Shown: positions 458 through 13,100 of the stretch, one piece after another
How the letters are laid out: the number at the start of each line of letters is the position of its first letter
Numbering within the stretch: the first letter of the stretch is position 1
Assembly: GCA_965365575.1 (NCBI GenBank)
Contig: CBDUCE010000016.1
Coordinates: 452 to 24,451 of the forward strand
Length of the DNA stretch: 24,000 nt
Source: an uncultured Gammaproteobacteria bacterium
GTDB lineage: Bacteria > Pseudomonadota > Gammaproteobacteria > Steroidobacterales > Woeseiaceae
Reading direction: 5' to 3'
Translations under genes and position numbers: made by a program
The notes under the pieces: model-generated
The model's database searches: none
What the model was told of the DNA's origin: nothing
What the model saw: only the letters and a program-made list of their open reading frames with translations

Positions 458-2167
458 CTAGTTCGCGGCTGGCGCCCGGCAACAGGTACGCGGGTCCAGC
501 TCGGTAATGTAAATACCCGCCATGTCGTCTTCCTCTTCAGCGCCTTCGAATCCCATCTTGGCGTTGATGGCGAGCCAGTCGCCACGCAGTCCTTCGCGCT
601 CGATGCCGACCTCGATGATTTTCGAATCGACCGGCGCTTCGGGATCGAGCAGTTGACCGTCCATGGTCGTATCGGCAACAGTAAGGAACGGTGACCGGCC
701 CGGACCTTCTCTCAGGTAGATACCGTCGACACCGGCCGTGCGCGCCTTGAAGGCGCTCCTGAAGGTCGCACCAGTATTTCTCGACACCGCGAGATACGCC
801 GATGAGCGCCAGCGGACGGACTCGCCGTCCTCTTCGCCGCCTTCCTCGCCGTTGCCGTGGTGGCCACCGCCCGTGCACGGCGCCTTGCCCGCATAGTTCC
901 AGAACAGGAAGTCGTCGAATCCCTTACCGGTTTTCGCCAGCAGGTGCGTACGTTTCGTCCGCGTGTCGTGGACGAAGATGCCCTGGTTAACCGGAACTTC
1001 GCGTTCCTGGTAGCAGCCCGTGTCGTCACAGATGCTGCCCGGGTCACCCTTCAGCTCGCCCGTGTCCTCGCAGACCAGCGCTTTGTTGCAGTAGGCCCTG
1101 CGGTCCTTGTTGCCTTCTGTCGGGCAGTAAAGCTTGAGCGAGCGGGTCTCCGTGCCCCAGGCGCCCCAGAAGCCGACGTAGCGGCCGTCGAAGGCGATGC
1201 CTTCGCCGAGCGCATTGAAACGGGCCTTGGTCGCATCACCGGGGACGCGCTGTCCGATGCTGACCAGTGTCCTGAGCCTCGGGGTAGGCGCGAGCGGCGC
1301 CATGTAGATGCCGCCCAATGCCGGGGCCCACTCGTTGTCGAAACCGGCAAATACGACCTTGTGATCGGCTGCGTTTGGCGGTGCAGTCGAACCGAAGTAC
1401 GTCCTGGTGCCGGGAATATAGGTTTCGGTGCTGGCGATGTGAAACGCCGGGTGCAATCCGCCGGCAGGCTCCGGTAACACACGCCGGAAGAAGACGCCGG
1501 TCTTCTCCGTGCCGCCTTCTGAATAATTGCCCTTGAACGCGATGATGTTGCCATTCGTTATCGAGGGTGCGCCCGGGAAAACTTCAAACGGAACGAGAGT
1601 CTTTCCCGGCACACCGAAGAAATCGAACTCCTGAACGTGGCCGAGCTTGGCGGCACCTGTTATCAGCTCGCCGTCATACGGGTTACTGTAGATACCGGTC
1701 GTGCCGGCACGGGTTTCTGTACCGTCGGGTTCGTAGTAGCGATGCACCGGTTGATGATTGCCGCGTGTCGCGATCGTGTTCGTATGCATGTCGATACGCG
1801 GGAACGACGGCGTTTCGATAAATGTCGATCCCAGATCGTTCGGTTCGGGCACGAACGTGGTCCTGTCGAGAACCCGGACGATTTCGCTGTCCGCCTGCCC
1901 CATGTCGCGCGTGTAGATGCCATGCGTCGCGGGCCCGAGCGGCGGTCCGCCGCGGCTGCGCGCCCGCACGACGACCATGCCCCTGGTGTTGACCGAGGGT
2001 GGGTTGTAACTGTTGAAAGTTCGTCCCCGTGCAAACGGCATCAAGTCGTTGTTGTTAATGACGGTGTTCCATTGGAAGACGCTCTCCTTTTCGTCCGCGA
2101 CTGCAGTACCTGTTACCACCGCTGCCGCCACCAACAGATACAGGGATTTCTTGTACCTGGGGTTCAT
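458..2167 (-). CDS. Secreted hypothetical protein with about 7 internal repeats (beta-propeller-like; possibly the NxxGxxAF 'choice-of-anchor' repeat type)
   Basis: ATG at 2167 with AGGAGG 6 nt upstream (2174-2179). Signal peptide MNPRYKKSLYLLVAAAVVTGTAVA/DE. Recurrent G-[IV]-[YF] motifs: GIYTRD, GIYSNP, GVFFRR, GIYMAP, GIFVHD, GIYLRE, GIYITE. Several follow N/D-x-x-G-x-x-[AV]-F-like strands (NGNIIAFKG, DHKVVFAGF, DGRYVGFWG). Contains an acidic Gly/His loop, GGGHHGNGEEGGEEDGE. Confidence 0.85.
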   Translation of the reverse strand: MNPRYKKSLYLLVAAAVVTGTAVADEKESVFQWNTVINNNDLMPFARGRTFNSYNPPSVNTRGMVVVRARSRGGPPLGPATHGIYTRDMGQADSEIVRVLDRTTFVPEPNDLGSTFIETPSFPRIDMHTNTIATRGNHQPVHRYYEPDGTETRAGTTGIYSNPYDGELITGAAKLGHVQEFDFFGVPGKTLVPFEVFPGAPSITNGNIIAFKGNYSEGGTEKTGVFFRRVLPEPAGGLHPAFHIASTETYIPGTRTYFGSTAPPNAADHKVVFAGFDNEWAPALGGIYMAPLAPTPRLRTLVSIGQRVPGDATKARFNALGEGIAFDGRYVGFWGAWGTETRSLKLYCPTEGNKDRRAYCNKALVCEDTGELKGDPGSICDDTGCYQEREVPVNQGIFVHDTRTKRTHLLAKTGKGFDDFLFWNYAGKAPCTGGGHHGNGEEGGEEDGESVRWRSSAYLAVSRNTGATFRSAFKARTAGVDGIYLREGPGRSPFLTVADTTMDGQLLDPEAPVDSKIIEVGIEREGLRGDWLAINAKMGFEGAEEEDDMAGIYITELDPRTCCRAPAAN

Positions 2168-2183
2168 GGCTGTCCTCCTGGTT

Positions 2184-2206
2184 CCCCGGGCCTTTGCGGC
2201 CCGGGG
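2184..2206 (-). other. Intercistronic 9-bp GC hairpin between the two secreted-protein genes
   Basis: CCCCGGGCC (2184-2192), loop TTTGC, GGCCCGGGG (2198-2206). It lies between the stop at 2257 and the RBS/ATG of the downstream gene. On the mRNA (minus) strand no U-tract follows it, so it looks like a processing/stability or attenuating element rather than a full terminator. Confidence 0.4.
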
Positions 2207-2256
2207 TGTTTTGCCTGCTGTCGTCAGCTGGCGTTGTTATAAAGAGCGAGCGTGGC

Positions 2257-3822
2257 CTAGTGGCCGCCGCCTCCTCCGGTTACCCGGACGTTGCTGACCG
2301 CTGATACCGCGTTGTTACCCATGTAGGGATCCTCAGTCCCAGCCGCCGGCTCGACCACCGCTGTCCACGTGATCTTGGCGGATTCATGCGGCTCGCCGAT
2401 GGTGAAGTAGACCGTGCCCGTGCTGAAACTCAGGCCCGGCACGATTCCGTCGAACTCCCACACGAACGGGCCAGGCAGACCATCGACGAGGACGTCCCCA
2501 CCGGCATCCGTATTGGCGGTGACGGTGAGTATGCCCGCTGCCGTATCCGGTCCGGCATTCGCGACGGTAACCACGAACTCGCGGCCTTCCGTCGTCGCGA
2601 CGACCTGTTTCGGCACCTTCAGCCCGGACTTCGCGCTAATCGAGAGGTCAAACTCGTCGGTCGGGTCCGGTAATGGCGTGCACGGAACCGGGGTCTTGTC
2701 GGCGTCCGGAACGGCATACGTATGCATGAAGTGAATGACTTCACGCGTATCGTCGGCCGCTTCCGCGAAACCGCCGATATTGCCGCCGGAATAGCCGGGA
2801 TCGTCCAGGAACACAGCGGTCATTATTGGTCCAACGACGGCCTGGTATGATCCGCCTCCCAGATCCTGCAGGAACTCGAACATGCCGGTTTGTGGTACGT
2901 CCGGGGGTGGCGGGAGATACGCCGGCGACGGCAGTCCTGCCGGAGCCGCTCCGGCGAAGTTCGTCTGCCGGTCATAGTAGTAACCGGTGGCCGTACCGTC
3001 GGCGAGGCGAGTGTAGTCCAGGAACCATTTCTTGACGACCTCAATGTTACCCATCACTTCCATCTTGATATCTTTATCCACCTTGAATAGATAGGTATCG
3101 ACATTGGGATCAGTCAGTCCCATGATCTGGTTCAGGTAGACGAGCAGGTCGATGTTCACCTGGCCCGCCTTGTCCATCGCAACGCCGAAGCCCCTGGCGG
3201 CAGTTTCGAGTACGCCCGCACCTTGCGGCAGCGGCACGCCGATCTGGCCGTCCAGCATCAGGTACTTGTAAACCGCGAGGTTCTGCAGCGGCGAATCGAT
3301 CGTGCTGGTTACCAGCACATCGCCGACGTAGCGGCTGTAAACCATCCGGCCTGCCGCATCCAGCGATGTGCAGTCGGCAATCGCGAGGTTCACCAGCACG
3401 TCCTGAAGCTGCGATGCCAGGACTCTGTCCGAGGCACGCGACAGGTTGACGCGGCCGAAGTCCGCCTCTTCAACGCAGGTCGCGAATTCCGGCTCGATCG
3501 CACAGGTTGCCGGATCGGTCGGAACGAGCCAAACCTCGTCGATGTCATTCCAAATCAGGTCATCGGCAGGGCAGCCAACGTTTGCGGGAAAGCCGATCGG
3601 TTGCTGGCACATAGCAGCGTCTGTAATGGGCACGCCGCCTGCATCCCTGTAGAGGATGACAAGGTCGCCGTAGTCCGGTGGCTCGGGCGTTCCGCCACCG
3701 CCACCACCTCCGCCGCCCCCGCCGCCGCCACCGCCGCGTCCCTGGGCGAGCGTATCGCCGCTCAGGCCGACGGCGCCGACTGCGAGCGCGCCGAGTAATG
3801 TAAGAAGCAGTCTGGTCTTCAT
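2257..3822 (-). CDS. Secreted hypothetical protein with an N-terminal poly-glycine tract and a C-terminal CARDB/DUF11-like beta-sandwich domain
   Basis: I prefer ATG at 3822 (MKTRLLL...) over the track's GTG at 3831, because AGGAGG (3831-3836) sits 8 nt upstream of 3822. Signal peptide ends ...LSGDTLAQG. G15 run. C-terminal about 130 aa (REFVVTVANAGPDTAAG...GNNAVSAVSNVRV) resembles CARDB/DUF11 repeats. Ends GGGGGH. Confidence 0.85.
   Translation of the reverse strand: MKTRLLLTLLGALAVGAVGLSGDTLAQGRGGGGGGGGGGGGGGGTPEPPDYGDLVILYRDAGGVPITDAAMCQQPIGFPANVGCPADDLIWNDIDEVWLVPTDPATCAIEPEFATCVEEADFGRVNLSRASDRVLASQLQDVLVNLAIADCTSLDAAGRMVYSRYVGDVLVTSTIDSPLQNLAVYKYLMLDGQIGVPLPQGAGVLETAARGFGVAMDKAGQVNIDLLVYLNQIMGLTDPNVDTYLFKVDKDIKMEVMGNIEVVKKWFLDYTRLADGTATGYYYDRQTNFAGAAPAGLPSPAYLPPPPDVPQTGMFEFLQDLGGGSYQAVVGPIMTAVFLDDPGYSGGNIGGFAEAADDTREVIHFMHTYAVPDADKTPVPCTPLPDPTDEFDLSISAKSGLKVPKQVVATTEGREFVVTVANAGPDTAAGILTVTANTDAGGDVLVDGLPGPFVWEFDGIVPGLSFSTGTVYFTIGEPHESAKITWTAVVEPAAGTEDPYMGNNAVSAVSNVRVTGGGGGH
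3691..3735 (-). repeat. (GGN)15 triplet tract encoding 15 consecutive glycines
   Basis: Read directly on the minus strand: GGC GGT GGC GGC GGC GGG GGC GGC GGA GGT GGT GGC GGT GGC GGA, between Arg and Thr-Pro-Glu-Pro-Pro. Confidence 0.95.
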
Positions 3823-3900
3823 GATGTACACCTCCTTGAATTGGTGCTCAGTGGCTGAAGAGGTTGTATCTCGGCCACTGTAGGAAGCGTCACTCAGTCG

Positions 3901-3948
3901 TGTTTCCTACGTATTTCCGAACGGTGTGAAATTGTTACAGTGTGTTTC
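3901..3948 (+). promoter_or_regulatory. Copy A of a 48-nt conserved block (candidate OmpR-family operator / activator-dependent promoter)
   Basis: TGTTTCCtacGtATTTCCGAAcggtgTGAAaTTGTTACAGtgTGTTTC. 38/48 identical, ungapped, to 7671-7718. GTGTTTCCTA is repeated exactly 42 nt apart (3900-3909 and 3942-3951). Contains an extended -10-like TGtTACAGT (3933-3941). Confidence 0.55.
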
Positions 3949-3950
3949 CT

Positions 3951-4688
3951 ATGGACGCTGGACGACGTGACACTCACGCCAGCGATTCACATCTGCTGGT
4001 CGTAGACGACGACGAGGAAACTCGCGACCTCCTGTCGCTTTACCTGGGGCAGCAGGGATTCGACGTTGCCGTCGTCGAGGACGGCAAGACGATGGACGCC
4101 TGGCTCGCCGATAATTCGACAGACCTGGTCATACTCGACCTGATGCTGCCCGGCGAGGACGGCCTGTCTATCGCCAGGCGCCTGCAGAGCGACCACAAGC
4201 TGCCCATCGTGATGATCTCGGCCCGCGGCGAAGAACTCGACCGCATCGTCGGACTCGAGGTCGGTGCCGATGACTACCTGCCCAAGCCCTTCAACCCCAG
4301 GGAGCTTCTGGCGCGCATCCGGGCGGTTTTGCGCCGCAGCAGTCCCTCTGCCGGGCCCCACCCGGACCAAGGTACGGGCCATGAGTTTGGCGAATTTCGG
4401 TTTGACGGTGAACGGCGCGTTCTCTACCGCGGCACCGCTGAGGTGGATCTTTCGAAGGCGGAGTTCGACCTCCTGCAGGTGTTCGTCAGTCACCCTAACC
4501 GGGTGCTCAGCAGGGACCTGATCATGGACTGCCTGAGTGGCGGCGACCGGGACCCCTTCGACCGCAGCATCGACGTGCGGGTTACACGCCTGAGACACAA
4601 GATGGAAGACGACCCGTCCAACCCGAAGCTCATCAGGACGGTCTGGGGCATCGGCTACCAGTTCACCCCCAAAGGGGACGTGCCATGA
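3951..4688 (+). CDS. ompR: OmpR-family response regulator (receiver domain plus winged-helix)
   Basis: Close similarity by eye to E. coli OmpR across the whole length (LVILDLMLPGEDGLSI, RIVGLEVGADDYLPKPFNPRELLARIRAVLRR, RSIDVRVTRLR, TVWGIGYQF). The start is ATG 3951 or GTG 3942; neither has a Shine-Dalgarno. The stop overlaps the kinase start (ATGA). The orthologue-level symbol is an inference. Confidence 0.9.
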   Translation: MDAGRRDTHASDSHLLVVDDDEETRDLLSLYLGQQGFDVAVVEDGKTMDAWLADNSTDLVILDLMLPGEDGLSIARRLQSDHKLPIVMISARGEELDRIVGLEVGADDYLPKPFNPRELLARIRAVLRRSSPSAGPHPDQGTGHEFGEFRFDGERRVLYRGTAEVDLSKAEFDLLQVFVSHPNRVLSRDLIMDCLSGGDRDPFDRSIDVRVTRLRHKMEDDPSNPKLIRTVWGIGYQFTPKGDVP

Positions 4689-6136
4689 CTCTCTATCCGC
4701 GCTCGTTGCTCGGACGCACGGCGATCACCATCGCACTCACGCTGCTCGCTTTCATGGCGATATCCATGACTGCCGCCGTGTACTTCGTCTACAACCCGAT
4801 GGCTAAACGACATGCAGAGGATTTCGCCGGGATTATCGTCGCGGCGGCTCATTCGTTGCAGAGCCTGCCCGTAGACATGCACGCGGAACTGAAAGACCGG
4901 TTGCTGCAGGACCATGGCTTGATCGTTGCCGAACAACCCTTCGAATCGTTCGAAACCACATCAAACCTGCCGTTCTACCCGTTTTTTCACGAGGCGCTCC
5001 ATGAGCAGGCGGGTGAGGACCTGCGCATCGTCGAATCGGCGGACAGCCCGATCATCTGGGTGGACGTGCCGGCCCACGGCAAAATCTACAGGCTGGGCTT
5101 CGACAAGCAACGGCTCGGAATCAATCCGCCCGTTGTGCTGATCCTCGCAATCTGCGTCGGTGCATTGCTTACCCTGCTCGCGAGTCTGTTCGAAGTACGC
5201 AGGGTCGTCCGACCCCTCGATCGATTATCGCTGGCGGTGAAAAAGCTCGCGCGTGGAGGAAACCCGCCGCGGATCCTCGAAGAGGGTCCCGAGGAGATTG
5301 TCAGCCTTGCGAGGACATTCAACCGGATGTCGTCCGACCTGCAGCAACTCTCGGAAAACCGCACGGTGATGATCGCCGGCATTTCGCACGATCTTCGCAC
5401 CCCGCTGACCCGCCTCGGTCTCGCAGTCGAGATGCTGGACCAGGACTCGAACCCCGAACTGGTCGAGCGAATCCGCCACAACCTGGACACGATGAACAGC
5501 CTGATTGGGCAATTCCTGCAATTTTCGCGGGGCGTCGATGGCGAGTGCCCTGTCCAGTTGGACCTCTGGCAGGTGATCGAATCGCTGGCCGCCGATCTGA
5601 AACTCGAAGGGTCCGAGCTGAATTTGCACCGCAACGACCCGCCTTGCGTGTATTTCGCCGACGCGGTCGCCCTCGAACGGGTGCTGGCGAACCTGCTGAA
5701 GAACGCGGCGCAGCACGGAAATGGCAACCCCATCGACGTCGAGCTGCACTGTACCGACGACGCGGTCGCTATCGAGATATGCGATCGTGGCCCCGGCATT
5801 CCACACGATGAGTTGCAGGCCGTGTTTCGACCGTTCCATCGCGTCGGGGAGGCTCGCAGCCAGTCGCCCGGGGGCAGCGGTCTCGGCCTTGCAATTGCCA
5901 ATCAGCTCGCGCTGAAACACGGCTGGACGATACAGTTGCTCCCACGTGACGGCGGCGGGACGGTAGCCAGGCTCTCCCTGCCACCAGGTCAGCGCTTCGG
6001 ACTGTGTGGATCGTCAGCGCAGCGCCGGCAGAAAACGTTTGACGTGCAAACCGGCACCCCAGTCAGCGCCGCTGTCGGTAAGTCCTTTGAAGGCAAACAG
6101 CTGCAGACGCCAGTCGGCACTGAGCCGGTTCGATAG
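4685..6136 (+). CDS. envZ: EnvZ-like sensor histidine kinase (2 TM, periplasmic loop, HAMP, HisKA, HATPase)
   Basis: H-box GISHDLRTPLTRLGLAVEML. N-box NLLKNAAQHGNG. G-boxes DRGPGI and GGSGLGLAI. Translationally coupled to the regulator gene. The recognisable HATPase domain ends near 5986. The last 49 aa form an unconserved-looking tail that overlaps the convergent OMP gene. Confidence 0.88.
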   Translation: MTLYPRSLLGRTAITIALTLLAFMAISMTAAVYFVYNPMAKRHAEDFAGIIVAAAHSLQSLPVDMHAELKDRLLQDHGLIVAEQPFESFETTSNLPFYPFFHEALHEQAGEDLRIVESADSPIIWVDVPAHGKIYRLGFDKQRLGINPPVVLILAICVGALLTLLASLFEVRRVVRPLDRLSLAVKKLARGGNPPRILEEGPEEIVSLARTFNRMSSDLQQLSENRTVMIAGISHDLRTPLTRLGLAVEMLDQDSNPELVERIRHNLDTMNSLIGQFLQFSRGVDGECPVQLDLWQVIESLAADLKLEGSELNLHRNDPPCVYFADAVALERVLANLLKNAAQHGNGNPIDVELHCTDDAVAIEICDRGPGIPHDELQAVFRPFHRVGEARSQSPGGSGLGLAIANQLALKHGWTIQLLPRDGGGTVARLSLPPGQRFGLCGSSAQRRQKTFDVQTGTPVSAAVGKSFEGKQLQTPVGTEPVR

Positions 6137-6805
6137 GAACAAGCTGAGTTCCTGCGTCGGGTCCGCGCCTATCGACGACTCGCGGTAGTCGAAAAACATG
6201 CCGAGCCTTGCGTCGCGGGTGGCCTTGTAAATGCCGCCGGCGGAAGCCAGGAAGGCATCGTCGAGCACGGTGCCGGGCGGCTGGCCGCGGAACTTATGGC
6301 CGATCGAACCGATCCAGGTAAACCGATCCGCGAACTTGAGGAAATCTGCCTGCACCGTGAAATCATTCTCGCCGGTACCGAGCCCGTTTTCGACGTCGGC
6401 CGTTCCGAACTTGACCTTGCCGGTGAGATCCATGGCGAACCCCAGGCGCCGATTTCGGATAACGTCAAGGACCGTGACGCTGGCGATCACATCACCTATG
6501 CCGCTGTTGGTAACGATTTCGCCGGTGCCGGGGATCGGTTCGCCCCCCGGGCCCGTCACTACCGTTCCCTCGGGTGCCCTGACGCTGAGGTAGGGCACGG
6601 TAAGTCGGAATGAAAGGCGCCTGTAATCGATCGTCGCCTTGAGTGGCACGTAGAAGTCCTCGATGGCTTGATCACCGCCGTAGGTGCCCGTCGTGTATTC
6701 CGCGCCGGCCGCGAGTGTGAGTCGGGGCTTTTCGTCTTCCGCCACCGCCACGCTTAAAAGCAGAATCAGGCAGCCGAGCAATGAACTTGTCTGCACTCGC
6801 TTCAT
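6014..6805 (-). CDS. Small outer-membrane beta-barrel protein (resembles the 'MetA-pathway of phenol degradation' / transporter OMP family)
   Basis: Signal peptide MKRVQTSSLLGCLILLLSVAVA/ED. Alternating amphipathic strands. An early YTTGTYGG motif. Near-C-terminal ...GAGLHVKRF followed by LPALR. The family assignment is from memory only. Confidence 0.75.
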   Translation of the reverse strand: MKRVQTSSLLGCLILLLSVAVAEDEKPRLTLAAGAEYTTGTYGGDQAIEDFYVPLKATIDYRRLSFRLTVPYLSVRAPEGTVVTGPGGEPIPGTGEIVTNSGIGDVIASVTVLDVIRNRRLGFAMDLTGKVKFGTADVENGLGTGENDFTVQADFLKFADRFTWIGSIGHKFRGQPPGTVLDDAFLASAGGIYKATRDARLGMFFDYRESSIGADPTQELSLFLSNRLSADWRLQLFAFKGLTDSGADWGAGLHVKRFLPALR

Positions 6806-6824
6806 GCTGGTCTCCCTGGAAAAG

Positions 6825-6849
6825 GGGGGCCGGACAATTACCGGCCCCC
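6825..6849 (-). terminator. Rho-independent terminator-like hairpin between the DR-repeat protein gene and the OMP gene
   Basis: On the minus strand: GGGGGCCGG, loop TAATTGT, CCGGCCCCC, then CTTTTCC. The U-tract abuts the OMP RBS (AGGGAGA, 6811-6817) and the ATG at 6805. Confidence 0.6.
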
Positions 6850-6881
6850 AATCAGGAGGTCACCGAATACGGGGGACGGGG

Positions 6882-7562
6882 TTATTCGGCTTCCTCGATA
6901 TCGAGCTCAAGGGCTTTTGCCCGCAGCTCCATCTGCTCACGATGCTGCGCCCGGAACTTCTCGACTTCGTCTTCCGAGTCCATTTGGCGCAGCTGCTCGC
7001 GGTACTCATTGCGCTCCTGCACGGTCATCAACTCGCCGCCGTAGACGGGCCCCTGGCCCGGAGGCACGAGGTCTTTGCCCTGCAATTGCGCGCGCTCCTG
7101 CATTTTTGCCTCATGCCTGGTCTGGTGCTGCTCGCGAGCCTCGACGGTCTCCATGTTCACGAGCTGATTGCGATATTGCCTCAGCTCCTCTTCGGACATC
7201 AGCGCACTACCGTAGATGTCTTCGTCTCTCAGGCTTGCCGGATCGGTCACGTGGAGGCGGTCACGATCCTGAACACGATCCCGGTCCTGGTCATGTCCGC
7301 TGGCCTGGTCTCGATCCCGGTCTCGATCCCGGTCCATGGAATCGGTGGTGGTGTAGTCCCGGGTACGATCCCGGTCCTGGTCCATGTCACGGTCGTAGGT
7401 CTGGTCGCGGTCCATATCGCGGTCGTAGTCACGATCCTGGTCCATTTGCTGGTCGCGATCGCCGCTGCCACCGCCGCCCTGCCCCTGTTGGGCATCAGCG
7501 GTCAGGAAGGTGATTGCCAGCATCGACGCCAGGATGATGCTGATGGAAAGTTTGTGTCTCAT
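6882..7562 (-). CDS. Periplasmic/secreted protein with an Asp-Arg dipeptide-repeat region and a duplicated helical YGxxLM[ST]xxExxxYRxQL module
   Basis: ATG 7562 with a GGAGG RBS. Signal peptide ...AITFLTADA/QQ. The sequence runs GGGGSG, then about 68 aa of DRD/DQD/DMD repeats, then two ~47-aa paralogous segments. No family name recalled with certainty. Confidence 0.85.
   Translation of the reverse strand: MRHKLSISIILASMLAITFLTADAQQGQGGGGSGDRDQQMDQDRDYDRDMDRDQTYDRDMDQDRDRTRDYTTTDSMDRDRDRDRDQASGHDQDRDRVQDRDRLHVTDPASLRDEDIYGSALMSEEELRQYRNQLVNMETVEAREQHQTRHEAKMQERAQLQGKDLVPPGQGPVYGGELMTVQERNEYREQLRQMDSEDEVEKFRAQHREQMELRAKALELDIEEAE
7257..7460 (-). repeat. Cryptic tandem repeat DNA encoding the (D-R/D-x-D) low-complexity region
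   Basis: GATCCCGGTC occurs four times and CTGGTCCAT recurs on the plus strand. The region translates to DRDQQMDQDRDYDRDMDRDQTYDRDMDQDRDRTRD...DRDRDRDRD...DQDRDRVQDRDR. The repeats also create long shadow ORFs in other frames. Confidence 0.9.
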
Positions 7563-7670
7563 TTGTCGATCCTCCGTTAATCACTCGTGCTCCCCGTCGC
7601 TCTCTCCAGGCTCTTTTGTGGCAGTATCGAATGGAGATCGCCGACCCACGATAGAAATGTGCCGCGAAGA

Positions 7671-7718
7671 TGTTTCCGGCGAATTTCCGAATTGCCTGAA
7701 TTTGTTACAGACTGTTTC
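7671..7718 (+). promoter_or_regulatory. Copy B of the 48-nt conserved block
   Basis: TGTTTCCggcGaATTTCCGAAttgccTGAAtTTGTTACAGacTGTTTC. 38/48 identical to 3901-3948 in the same orientation. It ends 5 nt before the ATG at 7724. It lies in the divergent region between the DR-repeat gene and the kinase gene. Confidence 0.55.
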
Positions 7719-7723
7719 GCGCG

Positions 7724-8785
7724 ATGACCAATGCACAGCCTGCAGACGCTTTTACCTTGCTAACGACAAGCCCTCCGGCCCTGTCCGAAGCGCATGCGGC
7801 GAAACTGCTCCGGGAGCATTACGGCCTGGAGGGAATACTCGAATCACAGGACAGCGAACGCGACCAGAACTACCTGCTGCGAACAACGCCGGCGGACAAG
7901 TACGTTCTGAAGATTGCGAATTCCGCCGAGATCGAACCAATCACGGACTTCCAGATAGCCGCTTTGCTGCACCTGGAGAATTCGCCGGTCGCCGGACTGG
8001 TGCCGCGCGTCATTCGAACCGTGGACGGACACACACGGATCCGGGTTTCGGCAGATAGTGGACATGCTCATAGCGCCCGCGTGCTGAGCTGGCTGCCCGG
8101 CGTTATGCGCCGGCCGGACGAACTCAACCCGATCGCTCTCTACCGCATGGGCGAGACACTCGCATCGCTCGGCAAGGCGCTCCGCGATTTCGAACACCCC
8201 GCGAGCGACTACCCCCTGCTCTGGGACATCAAGCAGGCGGAGCGCCTGCGTGACCTGCTTGACACGGTTACCGACACGGCGTTGCGCGATGTCCTCCGTG
8301 AGCACATCGACACATTCGCAGAGGTGGTCTCGCCACGGTTGCCAGCGCTGCGCTGGCAGGTCATTCACAACGACCTGAACCCTGGCAACGTACTCTTCGA
8401 CCCCCGTGACGATCGCAAGGTAGCGGGCATCATCGACTTCGGCGATATGATCGACTCGCCACTCGTCGTCGACGCGGCGGTAGCATCGGCCTATCTTTGC
8501 CGCAGGAACGATGGTTCGCTTGCCGACATGCTCGAGTTCCTGCGCGGTTATAACGCGGTTGCACCGCTCACGGCAGACGAGTTCGCGCTCCTGCCGTACC
8601 TCATCACGATCCGCAGCGTGACTACCCTGGTCATTTCGCACTGGCGCGCGTCGATGTATCCTGACAATCAGGCTTACATCCTGCGTAGCGCGGCTCGTGC
8701 GCTGCATATGCTTAAGACATTCGGGCGAAGGCCGCCAACCGCGGTCACGCGTGAGATGCAGGAACACTGTGGAAACCAAGACTGA
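7724..8785 (+). CDS. APH-fold small-molecule kinase (homoserine kinase type II / hydroxylysine-kinase-like phosphotransferase)
   Basis: N-terminal ...LSEAHAAKLLREHYGL...SERDQNYLL. Catalytic loop VIHNDLNPGNVLF. Metal-binding IIDFGDM. No SD upstream of ATG 7724. Confidence 0.85.
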   Translation: MTNAQPADAFTLLTTSPPALSEAHAAKLLREHYGLEGILESQDSERDQNYLLRTTPADKYVLKIANSAEIEPITDFQIAALLHLENSPVAGLVPRVIRTVDGHTRIRVSADSGHAHSARVLSWLPGVMRRPDELNPIALYRMGETLASLGKALRDFEHPASDYPLLWDIKQAERLRDLLDTVTDTALRDVLREHIDTFAEVVSPRLPALRWQVIHNDLNPGNVLFDPRDDRKVAGIIDFGDMIDSPLVVDAAVASAYLCRRNDGSLADMLEFLRGYNAVAPLTADEFALLPYLITIRSVTTLVISHWRASMYPDNQAYILRSAARALHMLKTFGRRPPTAVTREMQEHCGNQD

Positions 8786-8995
8786 CGATTTGCTCGGGCG
8801 TCGCGACAAGCTGCTCGGGCCGGCCTACCGGCTGAACTACGACGATCCGGTGCATCCCGTTCGCGGCGAAGGTGTGTGGCTGCACGATGCGACCGGGCGC
8901 AAGTACCTCGACATTTACAACACCCTGCCGCGCGGCGGCGCCCTGGCGCGATCGGGCGCGATCGACCCTGACCAAAACATCCTGAAACTGCGCGC

Positions 8996-8999
<4 letters not shown>
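8769..8999 (+). pseudogene. Remnant of a class-III (AGXT2L/phospholyase-type) aminotransferase gene with most of the body deleted
   Basis: GTG 8769 overlaps the kinase 3' end. The first ~50 aa (TDDLLGRRDKLLGPAYRLNYDDPVHPVRGEGVWLHDATGRKYLDIYN) match the conserved N-terminus of this family. Similarity stops where NVPHVGH would be expected. The ORF ends after 76 aa with ...DPDQNILKLRA, which resembles the family's C-terminal G..NxLKxxPPL motif. Confidence 0.6.
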
Positions 9000-10125
<1,126 letters not shown>

Positions 10126-10129
<4 letters not shown>

Positions 10130-11593: not shown

Positions 11594-13100
11594 TGCCCAC
11601 CACGCGCGGCTTGCGATCAAGTATCCCGGTGAGCTCGGCGGCTTCCGCTCCGAGCACGGTCGTGTTGGTGCGCGAACCCTGCTTTTCCCTGAACCTGCGG
11701 ATGTCCGAGAGCCGGACCATATAACCCGTGACGCGCACGAGATCGTTGCTCGCGACGTTCACCGTGAACTCGCGGAAGCCGCTCGCAAACGCGCCCTTGC
11801 ACAGCTGCACGAGCGCTTCGGGATTGTTGGTGACGCTCTCGTCCACAGTCAGGATCTCGCTGATCCCCGCTTCGTAATACTGGTGGTGCGGCGCCAGCGC
11901 CTGTACGTGGGTGACCGGGTCCGGCTCGGTGCCGTAAGGGATGCGCACGCCGGGCGTCGCGTCGCTGTCGTCGCTGAGCCCGGCCTGCGAATGCAGCAAC
12001 GCACGGCCGCGCCAGACCTTGTCGAGCGGCCGGTTCCGAACCGCTTCCGCAATCGCTGCCGAGATGCGGTGGCCGAGCTTATTCGCGGTCTCGTCGAATC
12101 CGTAGCGGCCATCGCGGCCTTCCTTGTCCTGCAGTACGTTGACCGCTTCGGCCATGGCGAAAACACCGAACATGGCGGTAAAACGGTCTGTGTCGATCCA
12201 ACCCTCTTTCACGAGGAAACTGTCGAAGAAGCCGGACTCGTCGAACAGGTAATCGATGCGGGCCTGGGTGAGCCGGAAGTTCAGTTCGAGGTAATGCGGC
12301 AGGGTCACGGCGAAGAAGTCGGCCTCGCTGCCGGCCCGGGAGGCCACCTCTTTCAGGTTGACCCGCGTCAGGGTGGACGCTCCGCCGGCCAGCGGCAAGA
12401 CGTTGTAACAGCTGACGATGCCGTAGCCGCGCTCGTCGAACGCGTCCGCGTGAACGAGATGATTGGCGATGTGCGGCTTGCAGCACTCGGCGATATTCCT
12501 GCCCGCCATCGCGAGAATTTCCTCGCCGCTCGTCTGCGGGTCGTACAGCAGGGTCAGGTTGGGTGCGATCTGTTTGAGTTCGGCGTCGACGCGCAGGATC
12601 GTCCGCGCGACGCGGTTGTCCGTCGGGCCGATGTTGGCGTGCATGAAGGCGTCGGGCAGCGTGCGATCGAGGTAACGCCAGAAGAGCCTGATCTTCTCGT
12701 ACAGATCGTGGTCGCCGACGTCCGCACAGAACGGCAGCAGCAGTTCGTCGAGTTGACCGATGTAGACGGGCATGCCCGTTACCGAGGGCACGTGGTGATA
12801 GGCGATCATCAGCGTGTTGATGGCTTCGTCGAGCGTCGCCGGCGCCGGCAGTTCCAGGTATTCGCTACCCCGCTGCAGGACGACGCTGTAGTCGGGCAGC
12901 ACGTAGCGCGGCTTGTACGGCGCGTGACCCTCGTACATGTCGCAGATAACACGCTCGTCGAGCGCCTGCCGCGTCTCGGCGTCGAGCGACGGGTACGGCA
13001 GCAGGTTTTCGGCCTCGAGCGACAGGTAGCGCGCCTTCTGGGCGGGGTTGAGCGTGGCATCGTTGGCGATGCTGCGCAATTTGCGGAGAGTGTCCTGCAT
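11565..13100 (-). CDS. yjjI: YjjI-family (DUF3029) short glycyl-radical enzyme of unknown function
   Basis: 511 aa, similar in size to E. coli YjjI. C-terminal glycyl-radical fingerprint NDLVRVTGYMVRLSD. Candidate thiyl Cys in GIVSCYNVLP. It sits immediately upstream of its activase and overlaps it by 29 nt. Confidence 0.85.
   Translation of the reverse strand: MQDTLRKLRSIANDATLNPAQKARYLSLEAENLLPYPSLDAETRQALDERVICDMYEGHAPYKPRYVLPDYSVVLQRGSEYLELPAPATLDEAINTLMIAYHHVPSVTGMPVYIGQLDELLLPFCADVGDHDLYEKIRLFWRYLDRTLPDAFMHANIGPTDNRVARTILRVDAELKQIAPNLTLLYDPQTSGEEILAMAGRNIAECCKPHIANHLVHADAFDERGYGIVSCYNVLPLAGGASTLTRVNLKEVASRAGSEADFFAVTLPHYLELNFRLTQARIDYLFDESGFFDSFLVKEGWIDTDRFTAMFGVFAMAEAVNVLQDKEGRDGRYGFDETANKLGHRISAAIAEAVRNRPLDKVWRGRALLHSQAGLSDDSDATPGVRIPYGTEPDPVTHVQALAPHHQYYEAGISEILTVDESVTNNPEALVQLCKGAFASGFREFTVNVASNDLVRVTGYMVRLSDIRRFREKQGSRTNTTVLGAEAAELTGILDRKPRVVGNELYPGYGQ

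Follow-up and report, generated by a model that had tools for sequence, protein, structure and literature searches.

We describe here a stretch of 24,000 nucleotides from an uncultured gammaproteobacterium of the family Woeseiaceae (called the window below, by which we mean the whole stretch that was analysed), and we focus on a 48-nt block that occurs twice in it, on either side of an OmpR/EnvZ-type two-component system and next to two operons of exported proteins. Woeseiaceae are reported to rank with the commonest bacteria of marine sediments, and they are mostly uncultured. The G+C content of the window is about 62%, and the closest relatives of its gene A are found in Woeseiaceae and in unclassified gammaproteobacterial metagenome-assembled genomes, from sediments. 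A preliminary description of the same DNA had reported six open reading frames between positions 458 and 7723, and these are present as it described them: a response regulator gene (RR) and a sensor histidine kinase gene (HK), with the exported proteins B and A encoded on one side and D and C on the other (signal peptides were called by eye). The features on which the argument turns are the following.

458-2167, minus strand: gene A, for an exported protein of 569 aa, a predicted seven-repeat beta-propeller; second gene of the B-A operon.
2257-3822, minus strand: gene B, for an exported protein of 521 aa; first gene of the B-A operon.
3886-3891, minus strand: predicted -10 element of the B-A promoter, GACGCT, which would start transcription near 3879.
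3901-3949, no strand assigned: block copy A, two predicted tandem OmpR-dimer sites.
3901-3907, 3912-3918, 3933-3939 and 3943-3949, minus strand: half-sites of copy A, GAAACA/GTAACA/GAAATA/GAAACA.
3951-4688, plus strand: RR, OmpR-like response regulator (Response_reg and Trans_reg_C domains).
4685-6136, plus strand: HK, EnvZ-like sensor histidine kinase (HAMP, HisKA and HATPase_c in Pfam).
6014-6805, minus strand: gene C, for an exported protein of 263 aa; second gene of the D-C operon.
6882-7562, minus strand: gene D, for an exported protein of 226 aa, behind GGAGGA; first gene of the D-C operon.
7656-7661, minus strand: predicted -10 element of the D-C promoter, CACATT, which would start transcription near 7649.
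7671-7719, no strand assigned: block copy B, two predicted tandem OmpR-dimer sites, for the D-C operon.

The two copies of the block (3901-3948 and 7671-7718) are on the same strand and are identical at 38 of their 48 positions, so that the sharing of this block by both intergenic regions, as first reported, was confirmed. They are the only two copies within the 24 kb, and a degenerate consensus searched with up to 3 mismatches finds both sites and gives 0 matches in 100 shuffles. The notion of one 48-nt element held for the two sites and had to be revised for its make-up: the block is not a uniform 48-mer and consists of four conserved half-sites around a variable centre of about 13 nt, according to the pattern TGTTTC-n6-ATTTCC, the variable stretch, and TGTTACA-n3-TGTTTC, with half-site spacings of 11, 21 and 10 bp. 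The motif of Escherichia coli OmpR has been given as KWWGTTACAT, and also as tTTGTTACAT, repeated as GTTACATTTTGTTACAT with a 10-bp repeat (PMC5438342). Half-site 3 of the block, aTTGTTACAg, fits the OmpR box tTTGTTACAT, and its core TTGTTACA is that of the OmpR box. On the bottom strand, the half-sites take G(A/T)(A/T)ACA forms that we take to be those of the ompC and ompF boxes; as they read GAAACA/GTAACA/GAAATA/GAAACA on that strand, the boxes would be directed to the exported-protein genes. The opposite orientation, with boxes on the plus strand pointing towards the regulator gene, was considered and rejected, because GAAACA/GTAACA, as read on the bottom strand, is closer to the OmpR half-site. 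Elsewhere in the window, a search for OmpR boxes gave chance-level matches only, with 2 mismatches, at 12395 and 17572.

The regulator that lies next to block copy A, read like the kinase and the block copies within the 24-kb window of the genome, is an OmpR homolog. Its two domains score 99 bits (PF00072) and 85 bits (PF00486) in Pfam, which is the domain composition of the OmpR subfamily, and its best NCBIfam model is OmpR (NF007005) with 280.5 bits, 83 bits ahead of RpaB, MtrA and PhoB, the next family having 197.7. It is 51% identical over 233 aa to E. coli OmpR, and the region of the recognition helix is near-identical. The kinase, whose start overlaps the stop of the regulator gene (ATGA), has EnvZ (NF007004) as its top NCBIfam model with 240.7 bits, its residues 2-433 being aligned to positions 5-435 of the 440 of the model; its C-terminal 50 aa or so extend past the end of this model. 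We therefore call the two genes ompR and envZ below, in the sense of OmpR-like and EnvZ-like. The ATG of ompR comes 2 nt past the block and has no Shine-Dalgarno sequence, whereas each of the four exported-protein genes (A-D) has a strong one. None of the RR orthologs has a Shine-Dalgarno sequence either, and in all RR-linked loci 1-2 nt separate the operator from their start codon (window 3942-3953); the N-terminal 12 residues or so of the regulator are poorly conserved. Because of this start, 1-2 nt after the operator and without a Shine-Dalgarno sequence, the ompR message is probably leaderless or Shine-Dalgarno-independent. A literature search on Woeseia with OmpR found nothing relevant.

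The block was then followed in relatives. We compared 80 reference-genome loci retrieved for encoding A, and scanned them for the block with up to 13 mismatches; metagenomes were scanned with a pattern of the block hexamers, with 22 fixed bases, which gave at least 120 contigs, and 127 occurrences among the matches listed, a scope that holds for all the metagenome results below. The expectation that the block would be present in orthologous intergenic regions was borne out in both collections. In the reference genomes, it is kept in such regions in 10 of the 80 loci, upstream of RR in 9 of them and next to D in 4. TGTTTC, ATTTCC, TGTTACA and TGTT(T/A)C are fixed in these 10 loci, and the changes gather in the central 13 nt or so and in the spacers; fixed hexamers with a variable centre and variable spacers are also found in the logo built from 108 non-redundant metagenome occurrences. 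Two loci stand apart in their arrangement. One (L004) has two RR-type copies of the block, one for RR and Y and one before B; in the other (L006), which has masked stretches, the block is 78 nt upstream of B, and RR and HK were not detected in the unmasked part.

The genes beside the block recur as well. Its divergent left gene among the 127 occurrences is D in 46, X (a DUF5666 lipoprotein gene) in 15, B in 15 and Y (for an exported protein unrelated to B) in 6, while its right gene is RR in 50, a gene of the APH family in 16 and mtnA in 9, with many unrelated genes in addition; the RR-linked blocks include those of diverged RR homologs, of 55-62% identity. The distances are fixed and specific to the gene. 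From the block to the start of RR, there are 2 nt in 31 of 33 scorable contigs and 1-2 nt in 32 of 33; the start of B is at 71-81 nt, that of X at 79-84 nt, that of Y at 128-130 nt, and that of D at 106-108 nt in 26 of 31 contigs, the right flank of the D-type copies being unconserved. Around the block, two flank positions alone are near-invariant in the 108 occurrences, namely -15 (A) and -11 (T), counted from the block, and this pair holds in all classes, even in 39 sequences whose flanks are otherwise unrelated. On the bottom strand, it reads as nAnnnT, that is, as the key positions of a -10 element, 9 nt from the 18-bp proximal site.

This places a predicted -10 element, and a predicted start, on the B-A and D-C sides of the two copies, with the centre of the proximal site near -30 and that of the distal site near -62. 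The pho box of PhoB consists of two direct repeats in 18 bp; it overlaps the -35 element or takes its place, and its centre is some 28-34 bp upstream of the transcription start (PMC2695467). The promoter layout at the block resembles this pho-box-like activation geometry, as judged from the sequence and by analogy. An alternative leftward -10, TACAGT/TATCGT at 17-18 nt from the block, was set aside, as it is present in only about half of the occurrences.

The gene content of the relatives is less uniform than that of the block would suggest for a fixed cluster of six. The full module is found in four loci (L002, L003, L004 and L041), to which the expected six-gene synteny applies. Elsewhere, B, RR and HK are present in L007, an X-Y-A operon is divergent from RR in three loci (L008, L009, L011), and X alone is divergent from RR in L032, with B-A about 5 kb off. 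B is directly upstream of A in 33 of the 80 loci and Y in 22, 3 loci having both, and a B-A or Y-A pair is found in 52 of the 80, in Gammaproteobacteria, Desulfuromonadales, Acidobacteriota, Methylococcales and others. This cassette of a partner plus A spans at least six phyla, and a two-component system stands beside it only in the Woeseiaceae-like clade of the 80 loci. With tblastn, C and D are detected in the four closest genomes only; D, usually with C, reaches more distant relatives in metagenome contigs, and C is missing in some relatives that retain D. The synteny thus holds in the close relatives only, and fails where B-A or Y-A pairs occur in several phyla without the two-component system and where C is missing or X, Y or EF-hand proteins take the divergent position. 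Because these pairs are so widespread, we read the exported partner plus A as the ancient unit, and on the same comparison of sequences the six genes are not one evolutionary unit.

Taken together, we propose that the block is an OmpR-type operator by which the OmpR/EnvZ-like system activates the B-A and D-C operons, and we give this reading a probability of roughly 0.7. The idea of one regulon, already put forward in the preliminary description, stands: a single regulon is the best reading and is well supported in silico, because the regulator encoded alongside is homologous to OmpR, whose consensus the half-sites follow, and because the block is present in orthologous intergenic regions at gene-specific fixed distances. 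What does not stand is the suggestion that the module is of a kind not described before, as an OmpR/EnvZ-type system with OmpR boxes was found instead. In the mechanism that we envisage, the EnvZ-like kinase would phosphorylate the OmpR-like regulator, and each block would be an operator with two tandem OmpR-dimer sites, made of four G(A/T)(A/T)AC(A) half-sites with 10-11 bp phasing, the two dimer sites being offset by about 32 bp, which is three helical turns. The proximal site, 9 nt upstream of nAnnnT, would stand in for the -35 element, and two dimers of phosphorylated regulator on the block would recruit the RNA polymerase and switch on the leftward, -35-less B-A and D-C promoters, in the manner of the pho-box and the ompC/ompF promoters. 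In relatives, X-Y-A and other operons would be activated likewise. Copy A would also control the ompR operon itself, most likely by occlusion and hence repression; with 2 nt between the end of the operator and the ATG of ompR, autoregulation is very probable. The output may be a remodelling of the envelope or of the cell surface upon an osmotic, ionic or envelope signal, since the products are a periplasmic repeat protein (D), a probable barrel (C), a CARDB-domain protein (B) and a predicted propeller (A). As for the kinase, the signal to be assumed by default in EnvZ/OmpR systems is osmotic or ionic, and we would carry it over by analogy. Thus, the regulatory principle is that of the textbook, in the form of a lineage-specific OmpR regulon, and what is new is its membership, that is, uncharacterised envelope proteins including the widespread cassette of a partner plus A.

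Several points weigh against this proposal. Both proteins of the two-component system score below the equivalog cut-offs of their best models, with 280.5 bits for RR against the 331 of OmpR (NF007005) and 240.7 bits for HK against the 415 of EnvZ. The conservation of the block in the metagenomes is partly a matter of ascertainment, as 22 of its positions were preset in the search pattern, an effect from which the statistics of the flanks and of the spacers are free. The -10 hexamers GACGCT and CACATT are weak, and a standard sigma-70 scan gave no -35/-10 promoter in either intergenic region, as would be expected for an activator-dependent promoter that has no -35 element. The sign of the ompR autoregulation is a guess. 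Finally, the way in which the block abuts starts on the plus strand also fits a shared core promoter or leader for RR and APH, to which we return below.

One alternative leaves the boxes in place and changes their purpose. In this alternative, the targets of the OmpR boxes (B, Y, A, C, D, X and the EF-hand substitutes of D) would form an undescribed extracytoplasmic system for cations or mineral surfaces, the kinase would sense a divalent cation and not osmolarity, and the partner plus A would be a new two-protein extracellular machine. We hold this to be unlikely as a whole. The divalent-cation part is kept alive by circumstantial points that amount to a weak hint: the Asp-rich D, the metal-bound CARDB structure that is matched by B, and the EF-hand gene that takes the position of D in six contigs (Pfam EF-hand_5, 40 bits). 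The picture of an outer-membrane conduit with its effectors, which had been offered as the simplest reading of the module, is speculative, and so is the binding of cations or mineral surfaces that had been suggested with it. In more distant relatives, a small exported protein with two EF-hands is encoded divergently from RR (L110, L141, L144, L163, L190 and L195), and in the contigs with unrecognised flanks the gene in this place is often of that kind or else encodes a small, Gly-rich, charged exported protein that resembles D.

The regulon reading must next be set against another view of the block, in which it would be mainly a shared core promoter or leader for ompR and APH on the plus strand, and not an operator for the divergent operons. 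The block stops 2 nt before the ATG of RR and 5 nt before that of APH, neither of which has a Shine-Dalgarno sequence, and the TGnTACAGT that it contains is close to an extended -10 element placed for a near-leaderless transcript. However, the right gene of the D-type copies varies (APH in 16, mtnA in 9, many unrelated), the distance to D is fixed while this right flank is unconserved, the last T of the -10 is lost in many RR-linked copies (TACAAA, TACAGA), and the conserved nAnnnT is on the opposite side and strand. We consider this view improbable as an account of the block, and for ompR itself it is partly compatible with the operator that we propose.

No more probable is the view that the block is bound by another factor, for example by another regulator of the OmpR/PhoB family, its location being coincidental or a matter of cross-regulation. 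Direct repeats phased at 10-11 bp are common to this whole family, and three of the four half-sites are GTTTC/ATTTC instead of the canonical GTTACA. Against this, 50 of the 127 occurrences are directly upstream of RR, including RR homologs of 55-62% identity, and the regulator encoded there is the closest OmpR homolog by model score, with a core TTGTTACA in the block that equals the OmpR box. As for a structured RNA (a leader or a small RNA), a dispersed repeat or a remnant of a mobile element, the block is indeed repeated and intergenic, and copy B forms a modest hairpin, but such an origin is hardly credible given that the block has no Rfam match, that its fold z-scores are between -1.2 and +1.25 with copies that fold differently, that variation is confined to the spacers without a compensatory pattern, that it occurs only twice in 24 kb and always keeps a fixed distance from particular genes, and that terminal inverted repeats were not found.

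Among the products of the predicted regulon, A is the most widely distributed, with more than 1,595 homologs of 46-88% identity in several phyla. Its seven G[IV][YF] motifs are consistent with seven blades, and its AlphaFold model is all-beta (pLDDT 75.6, pTM 0.80), in agreement with the propeller-like protein of seven repeats that had been suggested; this model is the only support for the propeller fold. A has no Pfam match and no relative by sequence in the Protein Data Bank (PDB), an exact-match look-up of the protein returned no record, and the comparison of its model with the PDB gave generic propellers only, with TM scores of at most 0.4. Two known families were tried and rejected, namely the NxxGxxAF choice-of-anchor propellers (TIGR05002, 16.5 bits for a cut-off of 50) and DUF7453 (the homolog P0024 has 24.4 bits with PF24251, for a cut-off of 26.2), and the literature on DUF7453, NxxGxxAF and DUF5666 gave nothing relevant. 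A carries an invariant acidic Gly-rich loop. The Gly-rich stretches attributed earlier to three of the exported proteins are all there: GGGHHGNGEEGGEEDGE in A, G15 and GGGGGH in B, and GGGGSG followed by the DRD array in D. In two loci, the gene for a large surface protein with cadherin/Big_9 repeats comes after A (L007 11760-13715, L032 11755-13923).

For B, the ATG at 3822, behind AGGAGG, is preferred over a GTG at 3831 as the start. The protein is laid out as a signal peptide, the G15 linker, a large alpha/beta domain, an Ig domain of the CARDB/DUF11 type and the GGGGGH tail, and its AlphaFold model has a pLDDT of 84. The C-terminal domain matches the CARDB structures 3idu (PF1109) and 2kl6 (Foldseek against the PDB, E of 4e-5 to 1e-4, target TM of 0.69-0.80), a fold match that makes this end of B Ig-like of the CARDB/DUF11 kind, as had been proposed. 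By sequence, its Pfam score for DUF11 is 20 bits, under the cut-off of 24.6, and PF01345 or PF07705 is present in some B homologs. In the same Foldseek search, the large alpha/beta domain at the N-terminus has no match among solved structures. A remote homology of B and Y was examined with hhalign and rejected, as no relation was found. The two unrelated families have in common a Gly run after the signal peptide and a Gly-rich C-terminal tail (in B, window 2257-2280 and 3690-3740; copies of Y in L004 6615-8003, L008 8418-9920, L009 8298-9809 and L011 8453-9925). These tails terminate in H, KP or RP, with a G3+H terminus in 42 of 107 B homologs, and no known sorting signal fits them.

Of all partners of the two-component system, D is the most constant: it adjoins the block in the 46 occurrences counted above, and it adjoins envZ in the loci that reach far enough. 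It is composed of a signal peptide, QGQGGGGSG, an array of DRDYDRDM, and two helical repeats of about 55 aa of the form IYGxxLM(S/T)xxExxxYR...HExxMQERA. Of 1.84 billion cluster representatives, 412 belong to this repeat family; D has no Pfam relative, and PDB profile searches were negative. The array (window 7250-7470) differs by about 1-7 units between near-identical metagenome contigs and is a hypervariable low-complexity segment. D is linked to its two-component system and carries the operator of that system, which is the linkage of the CpxP type. Membership in the CpxP/Spy/ZraP group was nevertheless rejected, with hhalign probabilities of 0.1-4%, no Pfam match and negative PDB searches; one distant relative of D, P0401, passes PF13801 marginally, with 30.5 bits for a cut-off of 29.2.

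C comes after D in the loci that have the full module, and likewise in most of the long enough metagenome contigs linked to D. It has no Pfam match itself, even at E <= 10, and many of its relatives of 58-84% identity, those of 80-84% included, carry a precomputed PF13557, so that C is a probable small outer-membrane beta-barrel of the PF13557 kind. The HK and C genes overlap convergently by 123 nt (6014-6136), and this overlap is also seen in L002, as well as in the publicly available gene calls for L201.

Both operons have a GC-rich hairpin in the gap between their two genes:

2184-2206, minus strand: hairpin in the B-A gap, a 9-bp GC stem 4 nt before the Shine-Dalgarno sequence of A.
6825-6849, minus strand: hairpin in the D-C gap, a 9-bp GC stem followed by CTTTT, before the Shine-Dalgarno sequence of C.

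The first is CCCCGGGCC-n5-GGCCCGGGG, without a U-tract on the coding strand, and it is kept in L001-L004, L041, L007 and L021, different hairpins occupying the same position in L027 and L047. The second is GGGGGCCGG-n7-CCGGCCCCC, then CTTTT, and it is kept in L002, L003, L004 and L041; this terminator-like hairpin may be an attenuator. Both are probably partial terminators or stabilisers of 3' ends, which would set the first gene of each operon above the second, with B in excess over A and D over C. Other hairpins are seen at the equivalent place of operons in Bryobacterales and Methylobacter loci.

On the far side of block copy B, at 7724-10129, the window contains the APH-family gene, whose ATG is 5 nt after the block, and then mtnA, to which L201 adds a gene for a class II aldolase, probably mtnB. 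The best NCBIfam matches of APH are PRK06148 and PRK06149, with an alignment to the N-terminal third of these models of about 1,000 residues, and the region resembles a methionine-salvage neighbourhood, unrelated to the regulon. APH was rejected as a member of the module, as it is absent in L004, reduced to a 5' remnant in L003, and on a flank that is unconserved; it is an incidental neighbour. In another group of more distant relatives (L103, L139, L151, L160 and L199), the gene to the right of the block encodes a protein of about 155 aa that ends in CxxCH and has a weak match to cytochrome c'.

What this analysis provides is a testable OmpR regulon for Woeseiaceae, with predicted promoters, a model of the operator and a list of the families targeted. 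Several exported families that are well conserved and annotated without a function also come to light, as do the B-A and Y-A cassettes that are found in many phyla. If the regulon answers to ionic or osmotic conditions, its targets would be candidates for the remodelling of the envelope in sediment bacteria.

Several known systems invite comparison, and we take the closest one last. CarSR (also BqsSR) of Pseudomonas aeruginosa has CarO and CarP as targets and responds to Ca2+ and Fe2+. Like it, the window has an OmpR-family system with a secreted (predicted) beta-propeller and a small periplasmic protein, and EF-hand proteins in the position of D in some relatives; the likeness is one of description, for which homology is not expected, and the binding motif differs. 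CpxRA with CpxP, and ZraSR with ZraP, are two-component systems with an adjacent, self-induced periplasmic accessory protein. D is likewise small, periplasmic, helical, linked to a two-component system and equipped with regulator boxes; its two helical repeats with LM(S/T)xxE recall the two LTXXQ motifs of the CpxP/ZraP group, and there are Gly-rich tails in relatives of D as in ZraP. Unlike CpxP, Spy and ZraP, D shows no detectable homology to the group (the hhalign and PDB searches given above), it is convergent with envZ and not divergent from ompR as CpxP would have it, and the Asp-Arg array is extra. With the pstS and phoB promoters of PhoB, the window shares a box that is predicted to take the place of the -35 element, tandem boxes, and a box carried by the regulator's own operon, whereas its half-site is of the OmpR type and not CTGTCAT, and its regulator scores 280 bits with the OmpR model versus 196 with that of PhoB.

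There remains EnvZ/OmpR itself, whose orthologs in Pseudomonas usually go by the name AmgRS. The differences are several. Both window proteins are under the NCBIfam equivalog cut-offs, three of the four half-sites are GAAAC/GAAAT with one pair at 11 bp, the targets are unrelated to OmpC and OmpF, and the operator abuts an ompR start that has no Shine-Dalgarno sequence. The ompF and ompC promoters have three dimer sites each (F1-F3 and C1-C3), whereas the block has two, the proximal one being closer to the -10, with its centre near -30. What the window has in common with EnvZ/OmpR of E. coli and Salmonella is the 51% identical regulator, a kinase that aligns with EnvZ over its full length, the order ompR-envZ with overlapping stop and start, and direct repeats in tandem, whose period is 10 bp and whose core is TTGTTACA, and, as at ompC and ompF, predicted tandem dimer sites upstream of -35-less promoters, with a probable barrel, C, among the targets.

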